DNA of 64,000 nt from Eledone cirrhosa (Eukaryota). The notes under the pieces were generated by a model that did not search any database, had not been told where the DNA came from, and was given only the letters and a program-made list of their open reading frames with translations. This document shows positions 12,560 to 62,880 of this stretch, in pieces. Numbering within the stretch: position 1 is the stretch's first letter; the number at the start of each line of letters is the position of its first letter. The position numbers were made by a program, and so were the translations under genes. The stretch covers positions 17,298,001 through 17,362,000 of the forward strand of contig OZ024758.1 in the NCBI GenBank assembly GCA_964016885.1. Reading direction: 5' to 3'.

Positions 12560-13287
12560 TTTGATAGGTTTCGGCCAGTATTGGCCCAGGCCATGTCTAA
12601 CTTAATAGCACCACCTGGCAAAGTCGTACAAATCAGTGTTTGGGCACTATGGCCCACTCGAGCAGACAGTTACCGTTTACGGAGGCATATCCGGGTGTAG
12701 GAGGCTTATGCGGGACTTCTTGAAGGAATTTATCCAAAGTCTTCTTGAACTTGATGGGGTCTGTCTCTGCTTTGATGTGTTTTGGTGTAATGTTAAAGAG
12801 TGCAGGGCCAATTGAGGTGAAATTATTGTGCCGTATTGTTGTTATGTGATGCGAGTGGGATTTTTGTCGTGGGCGGATAGCACGGGGCCCAAGCCTTGGG
12901 TGTACACTAAAGGGGATGCCAACATCATTTGGGATAAGATGATGGAATATTTTCCACATCATACAGATAATGTAGCACTCACGGTGACGTTGAAGAGAAT
13001 AAAGTTTGAGCTTTTCTAATCGACCCCAATAGTCAAGGCCTGTCATGCCAACTATTTTTGTAATTGACCTTTGGGGTGCTTCAACTTTCATGATACTTTG
13101 TTTCGTATGGGGGTGACCACAGTGGACAACAGTATTCAAGGTGGGGTCGGGCAAAAGTGGAGAAGAGAAGGACAACAGTGTGGATATCTCTCAACTGGAA
13201 AGTTCTGAGAATCCAGGAACACATTCTGCGGGCCATATCAACTTTGCTGTTTATATGAGTGGCCCAGCTTATATTGTCCACAAGCAC
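12560..13287 (-). mobile_element. CR1-type LINE ORF2 3' fragment (frameshifted)
   Basis: DNISWATHINSKVDMARRMCSWILRTF..FARPHLEYCCPLWSP/..KVEAPQRSITK..LDYWGRLEKLKLYSLQRHRE..LFNITP..FKKTLDKFL, the typical CR1 post-RT domain. Confidence 0.9.
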
Positions 13288-29613: not shown

Positions 29614-29972
29614 TCATCATCATCATTTTACGTCCGCTTTTCCCTGCTTGCAAGGGTGGGACGGGTCTTATTCAGCACAGCATCTCTCCACTTGTCACGC
29701 TCCTTCGGCATCTCCACCGTGAGCTTCAGCGATCTGAGGTCTGTTCTCACCACCTCCGCCCATGTTTTTTGTGATCTACCTCTACCACGTCTTCCTTCAA
29801 CTGGCATTTCCTGGCACTCCTTCACCCATTGGTCATCCTCCATGCGCATCACATGTCCATACCACCTCAGTCTCCTCTCTCGCACACTACATTCTATCCC
29901 TCTCAGACACAGTTTCTCTCTCAACACACTCATGCTGGGTTGTTCATGCACATTGACATTGCATATCCAACA
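29611..29972 (-). mobile_element. RTE LINE 3' fragment (same family as 50633)
   Basis: LREKLCLRGIECSVRERRLRWYGHVMRMEDDQWVKECQEMPVEGRRGRGR..KTWAEVV; (GAT)n tail. Confidence 0.95.
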
Positions 29973-29999
29973 GATGTATATGTATGTATATATATATCA

Positions 30000-36204: not shown

Positions 36205-36236
<32 letters not shown>

Positions 36237-36869
36237 GATATATATATCTATTTGTGTGGCCATGTCTATGTATGTAAATAAATATATATATATGCATATA
36301 TATATATACATATATACATATGTATATACATATATTTGTGTCAGTGTGTGTAAGTATGTAAATATATATATATTATATATATATATATATATATAATTAT
36401 ATGCATATATATATACATATACATGCATATAAATATATATATATATATGCATATATATATATATACATATACATGCATATAAATATATATATATATATGG
36501 ATATATATATATATACATATACATGCATATAAATATATATATATATATGCATATATATATATACATATACATGCATATAAATATATATATATATATGCAT
36601 ATATATATATACATATACATGCATATAAATATATATATATAAATATATATTTATATGCATATATACATGTATATAAATATATATATTTAAATATATATTT
36701 ATATGCATATATACATGTATATAAATATATATTTATATGCATATATATATATTTAAATATATATTTATATGCATATATACATGTATATAAATATATATAT
36801 TTAAATATATATTTATATGCATATATATATATATATATTTATATGCATATATATATATATATATTTATA

Positions 36870-36912
<43 letters not shown>

Positions 36913-36914
36913 GC

Positions 36915-37028
<114 letters not shown>

Positions 37029-37083
37029 GTGAGGTTTTTTTTACAAAATGAAAAATAACCGAGGTGTCCTACACGAGTGGAAG

Positions 37084-37367
37084 TATAAAGAAAAAGAGAT
37101 GAAATCGAAAATGCAACTGAAGTCTTATTTTTTTTTAAAATATATATATTTATTTGGTTCCTTTACCGGTTTCGCAGTTCTTCTGCTTTTCAAAAGGTGA
37201 GTTGAGATGGAGGGTCTGTGGTTTTTCTCACATCTCAATCTCACCCTCCATCTCAACTCACCTTTTGAAAAGCAGAAGAACTGCGGAACCGGTAAAGGAA
37301 CCAAATAAATATATATATTTTAAAAAAAAATAAGACTTCAGTTGCATTTTCGATTTCATCTCTTTTT

Positions 37368-37374
<7 letters not shown>
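37084..37374. repeat. Foldback with ~132-bp arms, 27-nt spacer and a minimal hammerhead in each arm
   Basis: 37084-37215 is the near-perfect reverse complement of 37243-37374; sits between (TA)n tracts. Confidence 0.95.
37160..37197 (-). ncRNA. Minimal type I hammerhead, U3-A8 variant with palindromic stem III
   Basis: Minus strand CCTT-TTGAAAA-GCAG(AAGAA)CTGC-GAAA-CCGG-TA-AAGG; the plus-strand twin at 37261-37298 has GGAA instead of GAAA. Confidence 0.75.
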
Positions 37375-37441
<67 letters not shown>

Positions 37442-37594
37442 GCATATATATATATATATATATATGAGTTTAAACAATGAAATGAAAATTCAAGTCATTA
37501 GAAATACACTTCCCTGCTTTACGATCGTTTCTAGGTGATGATAATACATCGTAACCATACTTTGTTATCGATCTATGTAAGGTTAGTTACAAAA

Positions 37595-42840: not shown

Positions 42841-43216
42841 ATCATCATCATTTTACGTTCGCTTTTCCCTGCTTGCAAGGATGGGACGGGTCTTATTCAG
42901 CACAGCATCTTTGCATTCGTCACGGTCCCTCGTCATCTCCACCGTGAGCTTCAATGATCTGGGGTCTGTTCTCACCACCTCCGCCCATGTTTTTCGTGGT
43001 CTAGCTCTACCACGTCTTCCTTCAACTGGCAATTCCTGGCACTTCTTCACCGATCGGTCATCCTCCATGCGCATCACATGTCCATACCACCTCAGTCTCC
43101 TCTCCCGTACACTACATTCTATCCCTCTCAGACAGTTTCTCTCTCAACACATTTATGCTGGGTCGTTCACGCACATTTACACTGCACATCCAACGGAGCA
43201 TGCTTGCCTCATTTCT
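42841..43216 (-). mobile_element. RTE LINE 3' fragment
   Basis: Nearly identical to the 3' ~380 bp of the 50633 element. Confidence 0.95.
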
Positions 43217-50632: not shown

Positions 50633-51697
50633 ATCATCATCATCATCATCATCATCATTTTACGTCCGCTTTTCCCTGCTTGCAAGGGTGGGACGGGTCT
50701 TATTCAGCACAGCATCTCTCCACTCGTCACGGTCCCTCGTCATCTCCACCGTGAGCTTCAATGATCTGAGGTCTGTTCTCACCACCTCCGCCCATGTTTT
50801 TCGTGGTCTACCTCTACCACGTCTTCCTTCAACTGGCATTTCCTGGCACTTCTTCACCCATCGGTCATCCTCCATGCGCATCACATGTCCATACCACCTC
50901 AGTCTCCTCTCCCGTACACTACATTCTATCCCTCTCAGACACAGTTTCTCTCTCAACACATTTATGCTGGGTCGTTCACGCACATTTACACTGCACATCC
51001 AACGGAGCATGCTTGCCTCATTTCTCTCCAGCCGTCGCATATCCTCTTGCGGTTGCTGCCCATGTTTCACTACCATGCAGCATCGCGCTCCTCACACAGG
51101 CATCATACAACCGGCCTTTCGTACGCAGGGAGAAACCCTTCTTCGTCAACAGAGGAAGCAGCTCCCTAAACTTCTTCCAACCCGTCCTTATTCTAGATAC
51201 TATGGCCTCGGAACACCCTCCTTCCATGCTAATCTGATCTCCTAGGTACCGGAAGCTATCCACCACTTCTATAGCGCCCTCTCGCATTTGAAAAATCTGT
51301 CTATCAGTGCGACTTCTACTGTCTAATTTCCCTGTACATCTACTGCATACATATTTCTCCCTACCTGTTAGTTTGCCTGCTATCCCGCTACATCTCTTGT
51401 GTACCCAGGACCTGCATTGTGTGCATTTTATAGAATTTATGCCAGTTCCTTTTCTGCATATCGAACATGGCCATTTCCCTGACGGAATCAGGGTTTTGTC
51501 CTCTTTTCTACTCATCAACACTTTTGTCTTAGCTAGATTTACTCTCAGTCCTCTTGCTTCCAACTGCTGTTTCCATAGCCGGAATTTATTCTCTAGCTCC
51601 TCTACTGATTCTGCTATAAGAGCCAGATCGTCAGCATAGAGAAGTTCCCATGGACAGCCAGTCTTAAACTCCTCTGTTATGGCTTGGAGGACTATGG
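50633..51697 (-). mobile_element. 5'-truncated RTE LINE (RT C-terminal half, PHD-like finger, C-terminus)
   Basis: WELLYADDLAL (RT YADD), VNLAKTKVL, CSIC-CTQC-HKRC-CSRC, VDSFRYLG, HGSETW, one frameshift near 51050, RLRWYGHVMR, GRGRPRKTW, (GAT)n tail. Confidence 0.95.
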
Positions 51698-51720
51698 TGT
51701 ATATATATATATATATATAT

Positions 51721-52083
51721 ATCATCATCATCATCATCGTTTAACGTCCATCTTCCACGCTTGCATGGGTTTGGACGGGAGTTTTCCCACTTGAGGCAAG
51801 ATTTGTTGTCCTGCTCATATAGAACTGTCTGGAGGGTTTTCTACGGCTGGATGCCCTTCCTAACACCAACCATGTTTACTACAGTGTGGACTGGGAGGTT
51901 TTTACAGTGTTACCTTCACGGCCACATTACAGCGTGGACTGTGTGTTTTTTTTATCGTGACACCTACACCTCATTTGTTTCGGACTGGATGTTGTGGTAC
52001 CAACATAACTTCACATTTAAGGGGGTGGTGTGGATGGGGTGGGGGTAGTGGGACGGGGGTGTATTTTGTTAGAGGTGCCTACT

Positions 52084-54523: not shown

Positions 54524-55980
54524 TGAAGGTGCATGGCTTAGTGGTTAGAGCACTGGGCTTGCAATTGAGAGGTTGTGAGTTCGATTCTCAGACTGGGTGA
54601 TGTGTTGTTTCCTTGAACAAGACACTTAATTTCACATTGTTCCAGTTTACTCAGCTGTAGAAATGAGCTACGATGTCATTGGTGCCAAGCTGTATCAGCC
54701 ATTGCCTTTCCTTTTCTCTTGGACATCAACATATATAGTGTTTATATACTGTACACAATGTATATATATATATATATATATGTTGTATATATAATGTATG
54801 TATATGTTGTATATATATATAATGTATATATATAGTGTATATATTAGTTGTAATGTCACTGGTGCCAAGCTGTATTGGCCATTGCCTTTCCCTTGGACAT
54901 CAACATATAGTGTTTATATACTGTACACAATGTATATATATATGTTGTATATATAATGTATATATATGTTGTATATATATAGTGTATATATTAGTTGTAA
55001 TGTCACTGGTGCCAAACTGTATTGGCCATTGCCTTTCCCTTGGGCATCAACATATATAGTGTTTATATACTGTACACAATGTATATATGTTGTATATATA
55101 ATGTATATATATGTTTGTATATATATAATGAATATATATAGTGTATATATTAGTTGTAATGTCACTGGTGCCAAGCTGTATTGGCCATTGCCTTTCCCTT
55201 GGACATCAACATATATAGTGTTTATATACTGTACACAATGTATATATATATGTTGTATATATAATGTATATATATGTTTGTATATATATAATGAATATAT
55301 ATAGTGTATATATTAGTTGTAATGTCACTGGTGCCAAGCTGTATTGGCCATTGCCTTTCCCTTGGACATCAACATATATAGTGTTTATATACTGTACACA
55401 ATGTATATATATATATATATATGTTGTATATATAATGTATATATATGTTGTATATATATAATGTATATATATAGTGTATATATTAGTTGTAATGTCACTG
55501 GTGCCAAGCTGTATCGGTCATTGCCTTTCCCTTGGACATCAACATAGTGTTTATATACTGTACACAATGTATATATGTTGTATATATATAATGTATATAT
55601 ATATAGTGTATATATTAGTTGTAATGTCACTGGTGCCAAACTGTATTGGTCATTGCCTTTCCCTTGGACATCAACATATATAGTGTTTATATACTGTACA
55701 CAATGTATATATATATATATATGTTGTATATATAATGTATATATATGTTGTATATATATAATGTATATATATAGTGTATATATTAGTTGTAATGTCACTG
55801 CTGCCAAACTGTATCGGCCATTGCCTTTCCCTTGGACATCATCGGTGGCATGGAGAGGGGAGACTGGTATGCACGGGCAACTAGTGGTCTTCTACAAAAC
55901 AAACCATGCCTAGGCTTGTACCTCAGAGGGAAACTTTCTAGGTGCAAACCCATGGTCATTCGTGACGGAGTGGGGCCTTT
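54524..55980 (+). repeat. SINE B with internal tandem array (8 conserved blocks, ~130-180-bp period)
   Basis: Head 54524-54670; block TGTCACTGGTGCCAAGCTGTATTGGCCATTGCCTTTCCCTTGGACATCA at ~54674, 54854, 55001, 55160, 55323, 55493, 55625 and 55793; SINE tail 55840-55980. Confidence 0.9.
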
Positions 55981-55983
55981 AAG

Positions 55984-56026
<43 letters not shown>

Positions 56027-56157
56027 CTCCTTATCTATCTATATACCCACTTGTTGGTTTTTCTGTCCGATTGCCCGATGTCAAGTGAGTGGAATTTGGT
56101 AGGCAGAAATTGCAAAAGCCTGACAAATGTCTGTCTGTCTATCTACCTATCTATCCA

Positions 56158-57364
56158 CTTCCGATTCCTTTGGAAGAGGCGGGCTCCTTTGGTGAGAAGA
56201 TCCATCTGCTGCCAACACCCTTCTAACGGAGGGCTGGGGATGCCGTGGTTGACGATGCGCAAACACGCGCTCAGGCTGCGGCATCTCTACGTATTCCTCA
56301 CCGGACAACCGGTGTGGGCCCCGTTCGTGAGGCGAGCCTTCCCACGACTCGTCTCGCTGACCGAGCTGCAGTCCTGGGTCAAGCAGAGACCGAGGAAAAT
56401 GGGCGACTGGCACATTGAATGTGCTCAGGCGCTCACAGCCCTCTGGCAGGCGGACCCGGCGGTCAGTGGAGACTCCACTTCGTCATTCTATAGAGGGTTG
56501 GTCCGCAGCAAGTGCGACGACGCGCTCGGTGAAACTCTGGGCGTAGAGGAAGTTGAACTGGCCAGTCTGTTCGGTAGGACCTTCCGCCCGGGACCGATGG
56601 ACAACTTCCAAAAGTCCCTGGCCTGGCAGTGCTACCGAGGAGCTCTACCAGTTCGAGACAAGCTCTACAGACATGGGCGCCCGGGCAGGGACCCTGCAAA
56701 AAAGATCTGTCCGAGGTGCGTGCGAGACGAAGAAACCGTCGCGCACGCATTCATACACTGCCCGGGCATCACTGACCTGTGGGGCTATGTAGAACGACTA
56801 TTGTCGCGGGTGGGACCAATCCAGTTGACCACCGAGTCCATTGTCATGATCAAACCGCCACCCTCCTTCAAAAACGAAGGAGAGGCAGTTTTCCTTTGTG
56901 TGATAGCTATGGCGAAAGAGGTTGTATGGTGGACAAGGTTGAAAGGGCTGAGGTCAGACACCTTTCTCTCCGGCCAACAACTGATTCTTTTTTTCAAATA
57001 CCACTTTGGAAGAAGAATCAGGATGGAGAGAGAGGTGCTGTACCCCAGCAAGTTTTATGAAAGGTGGGTGAAAGTGGCGAGAATGGCCCGAGTGAATGGG
57101 CCTTCTCTCTATATCAGCCTGTAGGTTGAGGAAAAGGAGGAGGAGAGGAAAGGAGTACAAGCTCTTCGTACTCCTGGAGATGAGGGTTGCACATTTTTTT
57201 TCGGGGGTATGTGTTACCCATATAAACTGTCTCCCTCTATTGGGGAAAATCGACTAACTTTTAAATTCCATCTGTGATAACATTTTACACGTTTTTATTG
57301 TATGTAAACTTCCCCCTTTGTATTTGTCCCCTTCTTTTGTGCCCCTGTGGCTAATAAAGAAATA
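56158..57364 (+). mobile_element. 5'-truncated Tx1/L1-type LINE (ORF2 C-terminus, open to stop at 57124)
   Basis: FRFLWK..GGLGMP..LAWQCYRGALPVRDKL..CPRCVRDEETVAHAFIHC (CCHC, zf-RVT-like)..VVWWTR; 3' UTR with AATAAA at 57353-57358; TSD TATCTATCCA at 56148-56157 and 57365-57374. Confidence 0.9.
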
Positions 57365-61547: not shown

Positions 61548-62880
61548 TCATCATTAATTTTATGTCCGCTTTTCCCTGCTTGCAAGGATGGGACGGGAAC
61601 TGATTCTGGCTTGATTTCTACAGCTGGATGCCCTTCCTAACACCAACCTCATTTACAGTGAGTGCTGGGGGTTTTTTTTTGGCGTGGCACCTCCACGACC
61701 ACTTTGCAGTGGAATGATAGGGACCCCAACCTCATTTACAGTGAGTGCTGGGGGGTTTTTTTTTGGCGTGGCACCTCCACGACCACTTTACAGTGGAATG
61801 ATAGGGACCCCAACCTCATTTACAGTGAGTGCTGGGGTTTTTTTTTTTGGCGTGGCACCTCCACGACCACTTTACAGTGGAATGATAGGGACCCCAACCT
61901 CATTTACAGTGAGTGCTGGGGTTTTTTTTTTGGCGTGGCACCTCCACGGCCACTTTACAGTGGAATGATAGGGACCCCAACCTCATTTACAGTGAGTGCT
62001 GGGGGGGGTTTTATGGCGTGGCACCTCCACGACCACTTTACAGTGGAATGATAGGGACCACAACCTCATTTACAGTGAGTGCTGGGGTTTTTTTTTTTGG
62101 CGTGGCACCTCCACGACCACTTTACAGTGGAATGATAGGGACCCCAACCTCATTTACAGTGAGTGCTGGGATTTTTTTTTTGGCGTGGCACCTCCACGAC
62201 CACTTTACAGTGGAATGATAGGGACCCCAACCTCATTTACAGTGAGTGCTGGGGGGTTTTTTTTGGCGTGGCACCTCCACGACCACTTTACAGTGGAATG
62301 ATAGGGACCCCGACCTCATTTACAGTGAGTGCTGGGGTTTTTTTTTTTGGCGTGGCACCTCCACGACCACTTTACAGTGGAATGATAGGGACCCCAACCT
62401 CATTTACAGTGAGTGCTGGGTTTTTTTTTTTGGCGTGGCACCTCCACGACCACTTTACAGTGGAATGATAGGGACCCCAACCTCATTTACAGTGAGTGCT
62501 GGGTTTTTTTTTTTGGCGTGGCACCTCCACGACCACTTTACAGTGGAATGATAGGGACCACAACCTCATTTACAGTGAGTGCTGGGTTTTTTTTTTTGGC
62601 GTGGCACCTCCACGACCACTTTACAGTGGAATGATAGGGACCCCAACCTCATTTACAGTGAGTGCTGGGTTGTTTTTTTTGGCGTGGCACCTCCACGACC
62701 ACTTTGCAGTGGAGTGATAGGGACCACAGTCCCTATCATCTCATTTCTACAGCTGAGTAAACTGGAGAAATATGAAATAAAGTGTCTTGCTCAAGGAAAC
62801 AACACATCACCCGGTCTGAGAATTGAACTCACAACCTTTTGATTGCAAGCCCAATGCTCTAACCACTAAGCCATGTGCCT
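61548..62880 (-). repeat. SINE C containing a 13-unit ~83-bp tandem array (61645-62725)
   Basis: Unit CAACCTCATTTACAGTGAGTGCTGG(G)n(T)nGGCGTGGCACCTCCACGACCACTTTACAGTGGAATGATAGGGACCC; SINE tail on the left, tRNA head on the right. Confidence 0.95.

Follow-up and report, generated by a model that had tools for sequence, protein, structure and literature searches.

The locus is best read as a single insertion of an abundant hammerhead-bearing repeat, consisting of two 3'-end copies that lie head to head in a TA microsatellite and were likely placed there by a PLE reverse transcriptase with a GIY-YIG endonuclease (probability about 0.78). It is located in a 64,000-nt stretch of Eledone cirrhosa DNA, in the following called the window, which is of animal type and rich in microsatellites (142 TA runs of at least 8 units). 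With 352 bp in total the inverted insertion is very short, and it has no coding part. The left copy (37023..37235, minus strand, 213 nt) is colinear with a repeat family of very high copy number, as delimited by contig depth over all bins, and other members of this family extend past 37235. Its outer end (37023..37083, minus strand) forms a one-sided 3' tail of 61 nt (59-65 nt given the TA ambiguity) that abuts (TA)n according to the sequence and the contig depth. The right arm (37243..37374, plus strand) is an inverted, tail-less copy, which in the arm comparison equals 37215-37084 and ends in (TA)n. Complementarity between the arms 37084-37215 and 37243-37374 extends over 131 of 132 positions with a spacer of 27 nt (37216-37242) in between, and the plus-strand hairpin RNA is predicted to fold at -218.7 kcal/mol (z -36). 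The initial annotation had set the limits at 37084..37374; its arms and mirror layout stand, whereas its extent falls short of the left copy, which adds the tail at 37023-37083 and 20 nt at 37216-37235.

The 3' ends of both copies face outward and the tail is found at one end only, which is the arrangement of an inverted 5'-truncated copy. Both ends of the insertion lie within (TA)n, i.e., in a (TA)n-based microsatellite on the left (36210..37022) and a (TA)n microsatellite on the right (37375..37465), which from their sequence are the likely target; a separate target duplication is not visible. A filler of 7 nt (37236..37242, plus strand), read directly from the sequence, occupies the junction of the two copies. 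Together with its flanks the filler is a near copy of 37251-37263 with one extra T, and it is bounded by the short microhomologies ATCT and ACC. Judged by its letters, it is a templated join.

From 37197 to 37160 the minus strand reads CCUU UUGAAAA GCAG AAGAA CUGC GAAA CCGG UA AAGG, and the mirror copy (37261-37298, plus strand) differs only at position 13 (37172 vs 37286), with GAAA changed to GGAA; both readings had been given before and are confirmed directly on the sequence. By sequence and descriptor, 37160..37197 (minus strand) is a type I minimal hammerhead-like motif with a predicted cut between 37164 and 37163. It is composed of a stem I of 4 bp, the core U3 U4 G5 A6 A7 A8 A9, a stem II of 4 bp with G10.1-C11.1, G12 A13 A14, a palindromic helix III ACCGGU, and A17, and it fits the core N3 U G A N N8 A / GAAA / UH with a Watson-Crick 3-8 pair and three helices. 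A minimal-hammerhead descriptor, which accepts any Watson-Crick 3-8 pair and asks for stems I and II of at least 4 bp and a palindromic helix III, matches once in the window, at 37160..37197. The same descriptor matches in 3 of 200 dinucleotide-shuffled windows (mean 0.015) and in 1 of 20,000 shuffled versions of the 213-nt arm. A hammerhead match is absent from the Rfam results at gathering score and at E values up to 10, as expected for a hammerhead motif so reduced; Rfam matches to miRNAs were dismissed as generic hairpin scores under gathering. The exact motif is absent from the metagenome contigs and viral contigs searched.

Given the expected effect of A13G on hammerhead activity, the mirror motif (37261..37298, plus strand, A13G at 37286) is likely inactive. 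A13 belongs to the required hammerhead core consensus in the part of PMC7151607 available to us, and the literature search on A13G returned no hammerhead data. ADAR editing was considered as the origin of A13G and set aside, as a single change is indistinguishable from an ordinary mutation. As a separate observation on the minus strand, a GT at 37166, which overlaps positions 16.2/16.1, is followed by a pyrimidine tract and a TAG 98 nt later (AG at 37069), resembling a pLTR intron. The ribozyme would cut this putative intron donor at 37166, and the spliced joint 37166-37069 was not found among the 15 of 32 joints listed.

The contigs of four public runs (4 of 17 candidates) were compared with 37023-37376, where X1 and X2 represent one sample and X5 another organism; summed depth does not equal copy number and is used for ratios only. 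Matching contigs amount to 6,957 in X1, 7,560 in X2, 11 in X4, and 234 in X5. They are colinear with the left copy from 37023 to 37235, and 64 (X1), 54 (X2), 1 (X4), and 8 (X5) of them continue with other sequence past 37235. Due to this colinearity with one arm and the low depth at the junction (see below), the family unit is one arm with the 61-nt tail and not the palindrome. Some family copies join (TA)n directly at 37233-37237 (20 and 10 contigs in X1), near the stop of the left copy; such joins may reflect the 5' end of a transcript or a hot spot of microhomology. No paper on this repeat family was found in the literature searched, which did not include subscription papers and some supplements.

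In X1/X2, variants reach a share of 3% or more in 16 of the 213 columns. The initial annotation had named conservation of the motif among other copies of the arm as one of the points on which its reading could fail, and this conservation is found: none of the 12 core columns (11 of which are readable, as contigs with G13 go to the right arm) carries a variant of 3% or more. The absence of varying core columns has P=0.38 by chance, a value that gives no indication of selection on the core or its 3-8 pair; on this count the core does not stand out from its flanks. Near position 13 the depth is 1.12 million for the GAAA arm vs 0.18 million for the GGAA arm, which identifies GAAA as the main family form. 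Outside the core, C11.1 is changed to U in ~4%, retaining a G-U pair, the last pair of stem II is broken in 2-5% of the depth, and stem I comprises only 3 bp in ~49% of the X1 depth owing to a change at 37197.

C3 has a share of 0.06% in X1, and U3-A8 is the norm of the family. In X5, C accounts for 15,775 of the 16,054 depth units at position 3 (98%); a change at position 8 is not listed and the depth dips to 3,119 at 37183. This C may represent a hidden C3-G8 or an uncompensated C3-A8 and could count against the compensatory reading of the U3-A8 pair. Both arms share a minority letter at 37120/37338, where the other letter makes up 77% and 66% of the X1 depth, as well as the subfamily letters at 37197-8 and identical lengths of the A/T runs in a stretch that is widely variable in the family. 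Due to these shared minority letters and run lengths, both arms are assigned to one template.

As to the mechanism, a PLE protein would nick (TA)n on both strands, and the two free 3' ends would prime cDNA on the family RNA at start sites ~61 nt apart, resulting in one arm with and one arm without a tail. Both cDNAs would end early, at 37235 and at the equivalent of 37215, and would be joined via microhomology with the 7-nt templated filler. By analogy with the PLE tails of PMC8557442 and PMC11167929, the 61-nt tail is likely the stretch between two reverse-transcription start sites. Both arms extend beyond the predicted cut site, one by 72 nt and the other by 52 nt, from which we infer that the copied RNA was uncut or re-ligated; in the family contigs the depth has no step at the predicted cut site.

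Some features count against a PLE origin or depart from the PLE pattern. With 59-65 nt the tail exceeds the 30-40 bp known from the literature. The right end is situated at a TATA, where a microhomology join may have taken the place of a fixed start site. Furthermore, the motif lacks the additional base that the PLE consensus has between positions 9 and 10.1. The description as an inverted-pLTR PLE remnant is retained for the motif and the layout, which match published ones, and not for a linked PLE ORF, as none was found. In the public runs the family is represented by thousands of contigs, and no linked ORF was found in the arm or the window. The family's upstream motif is likewise absent from the window. 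We regard a young PLE-type inverted insertion that works like a PLE pLTR remnant as real.

The same PLE enzymes may have acted on a different parent, namely a non-coding rider such as a non-LTR retrozyme or a SINE-like unit, whose template may have been a small circular RNA closed at the site of the hammerhead. This origin is a serious candidate, though short of even odds. It is in agreement with the arm, which contains no ORF and in which neither an AUG nor an ORF follows the motif, with the very high abundance of the family, and with the reading across the cut site, which a circle explains as well; furthermore, PLEs are proposed as movers of retrozymes in the available parts of PMC7229834 and bioRxiv 10.64898/2026.07.22.740005. 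On the other hand, a head-to-tail tandem unit is lacking, the window contains only two opposed copies, and the motif is of the minimal PLE type and not of the canonical retrozyme type with a 6-bp stem I and loop contacts (PMC4209133, PMC7229834, as far as available). We lean slightly towards a PLE pLTR rather than a non-coding rider as the parent.

It is unlikely that the palindrome arose from a single priming event. In that case either the initial cDNA or a broken DNA end would have folded back at CATCT/AGATG and served as its own template, TATA would be the site of its joining to (TA)n, and the palindrome would be a repair product. The arms are identical save one base, the filler and the microhomologies fit self-priming, and a TA microhomology of 4 nt is present exactly at the right end, all of which this origin would explain. 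Against it, an asymmetric tail is a recurrent feature of PLEs in the available parts of PMC8557442 and PMC11167929, and the summed depth in X5, which serves as a ratio only, is 9,059 in the tail (37080) vs 15,723 in the part shared by both arms (37096), a difference that points weakly to another fixed end.

An assembly or read chimera, or a chance match of the motif lacking ribozyme ancestry, is very improbable. The whole palindrome is spanned by no contig of the four public runs, so that the junction is known from the assembly alone, and Rfam gives no hammerhead; yet the asymmetric ends, the templated filler, and the single mismatch are unlike a simple foldback read, and the motif, rare in the shuffles given above, matches published PLE motifs part by part. 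The least probable origin is a DNA transposon of the foldback or MITE type, with a hammerhead-like string that is present by chance in its terminal inverted repeats, since the near-perfect 132-bp inverted repeat with TA at its ends is opposed by a family that is colinear with one arm, the tail, and more upstream sequence, by a depth of ~1,200-1,500 at the junction (37238-39) vs ~10^6 on the arm (~1,000-fold lower), and by the rarity of the motif by chance.

A frameshifted PLE endonuclease fragment is located at 39093-38465 on the minus strand, 1.3 kb from the arm. It contains a CxCX5C linker and CxxC/CxH motifs, shares 46% identity with P0002 over 136 aa, and, judged by its alignment and the description in the available part of PMC8557442, fits the Hydra clade. 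Searches of Pfam and NCBIfam with this protein gave nothing useful, and no viral relative was found. In its 3' flank (to ~37868), which ends at a TA-type microsatellite, an intact hammerhead core was not found. As a parent of the insertion this fragment was rejected: any similarity of its DNA to the arm stays within the range of shuffles or is due to low complexity, and helix III of Hydra-type hammerheads is different and longer. Due to both points it is treated as a separate insertion.

A metagenome relative, the Hydra-like PLE L001, carries two tandem hammerhead-like motifs after its ORF (2640-2815), followed by (TA)n. A likeness between the arm (37099-37127, plus strand) and the 3' end of L001 (2817-2846) comprises ~23 of 29 letters in opposite orientation to the hammerhead; with low-complexity letters left out it is weakened, being reached by 17 of 2,000 shuffles, with 5 of 300 for the best score over the whole locus. 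This likeness is regarded as marginal and was not used. Elsewhere in the window, tRNA-like Rfam matches slightly over gathering occur at 54532-54595 (plus) and 62816-62873 (minus) and are probably heads of tRNA-derived SINEs. ORFs that by eye resemble protein fragments of non-LTR retrotransposons are situated at 50660-51740, 29628-29996, 42853-43143, and 12633-13190 on the minus strand and at 55793-57124 on the plus strand. Tandem arrays of longer units, recognised from repeating translations, cover 61615-62551 and 54914-55913.

According to folding predictions, the monomer with helix III closed has +0.7 kcal/mol, and in the most favourable fold of the monomer U3 is paired with A17 (P=0.56), thereby extending stem I into an inactive form. 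In the model, a C3 core could not form such an extension of stem I. A domain-swapped dimer of same-strand copies is predicted at -18.9 kcal/mol vs a cofold minimum of -20.3 kcal/mol. In read-through RNA of either direction the predicted pairing probability of stems I and II is 0.0. The two motifs are located on opposite strands and therefore no single RNA carries both in sense; for this reason, and on the basis of the folding, a cis dimer at this locus was ruled out.

Because the copies occupy opposite strands and read-through would bury each of them in the 132-bp duplex, the locus is predicted to be silent as a ribozyme, whatever A13G does. The earlier description of one intact and one probably dead ribozyme is to be amended accordingly: it passes over the opposite strands of the two copies, and the copy with the intact core would be buried on read-through like its counterpart. 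The 132-bp dsRNA is predicted to be real only if the site is transcribed. The hammerhead is equipment of the parent family; its cleavage is predicted for tandem transcripts of the parent, and there only in dimeric form or with the aid of a protein.

It is tempting to speculate further that the locus records how, in a family of many thousands of copies, a single RNA, either uncut or re-circularised, was copied by a PLE enzyme starting from the two ends of a staggered break, with two fixed starts ~61 nt apart, that the U3-A8/A17 hammerhead is kept off by U3:A17 until dimer or protein contact, and that U3-A8 and C3-G8 are swapped among related species; as a whole this is tentative and rather doubtful. 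If this were true, genomes would allow a direct count of what the model of two-ended PLE integration and the function of the ribozyme predict. The value of the locus lies in the material. The origin of inverted, uneven-ended PLE insertions is called open in the available part of PMC8557442, and the role of PLE hammerheads is called unclear there and in that of PMC11167929. In a young family that has thousands of copies, one could count where copies end, how they are joined, and how often the cut site is read through, and a natural pair of U3-A8 and C3 sister families would allow a direct comparison of activity. The literature searched contains no assay of a U3-A8 PLE motif; Lunse et al. 2017, which was outside its scope, may cover one.

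The comparison with known systems refers to the parts of the cited papers that were available to us. The U3-A8 core has ~1,300 matches in S. mansoni (Cervera and de la Pena 2014, PMC4209133), with a U3-A8 variant in S. mansoni Cercyon. In the text and Fig. S3 of PMC4209133, a PLE-linked Schistosoma motif shows a U3-A8 core whose letters UUGAAAA are identical to those found here, and a UUGAAAAA core is linked to a PLE. The same paper describes dual PLE hammerheads on opposite strands, 100-700 bp apart, as well as small palindromic helices III and low dimer cleavage; the dimer cleavage of hammerheads is reviewed in PMC6765202, citing Lunse et al. 2017. With the pLTR hammerheads of PMC4209133 the locus shares the type I, the short stem I, G10.1-C11.1, the palindromic helix III, the UUGAAAA core, the occurrence mostly as solo copies, and opposed pairs, whereas its stem II has only 4 bp, an extra base before 10.1 is missing, loop 3 is a 2-nt palindrome, and A17 is present. 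Nearest in shape is the PLE motif of the shrimp Marsupenaeus, which also lacks the extra base before 10.1 but has C3-G8. The Hydra-clade motifs listed in PMC8557442 have a helix III of 3-4 bp and C3-G8 cores and are unlike the motif of this locus, whereas the ACCGGT helix III occurs in Chlamys-2 and -5_cBra (PMC8557442). The combination of U3-A8, ACCGGU, and A17 is absent from the 56 motifs of PMC4209133 Fig. S3 and the PMC8557442 table.

For EN+ PLEs, inverted 5'-truncated copies, a tail of 30-40 bp often at one end, and (TA)n targets are described by Craig et al. 2021 (PMC8557442). Their insertions, e.g., Penelope-13_HM, resemble the locus in the inverted copy at the 5' end, the hammerheads on both strands, the one-end tail, and the (TA)n target, and differ from it in that the insertion here has 352 bp, no coding part, and a tail of ~61 nt. 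In the accessible part of the PMC8557442 supplement, three 11-nt arm motifs gave one match in an unrelated sequence context, where line breaks may hide matches. According to Frangieh et al. 2024 (PMC11167929), internal reverse-transcription starts define the tail, uncut RNA is the main template, and cleavage is protein-assisted; the 3-8 pair was rescued with C3G/G8C. Like the insertions of Poseidon of Anolis (PAc), the copies of this locus read through the cut site and have an AT-rich target and an optional tail, but the ORF of PAc starts in stem II and its tail is coding, whereas no AUG or ORF follows here (PMC11167929). Metazoan non-LTR retrozymes are similarly abundant, short, and non-coding, with a type I hammerhead and a proposed mobilisation by PLEs (PMC7229834; bioRxiv 10.64898/2026.07.22.740005); in contrast to them, the locus has no tandem unit and its motif is minimal instead of canonical. 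The U3-A8 hammerhead variant is not new, and as a ribozyme the motif extends an already published class of variants by a single family. Each separate feature of the locus, i.e., the U3-A8 core, the ACCGGU helix III, the inverted second hammerhead, the one-sided tail, and the (TA)n targets, is already published for PLEs.
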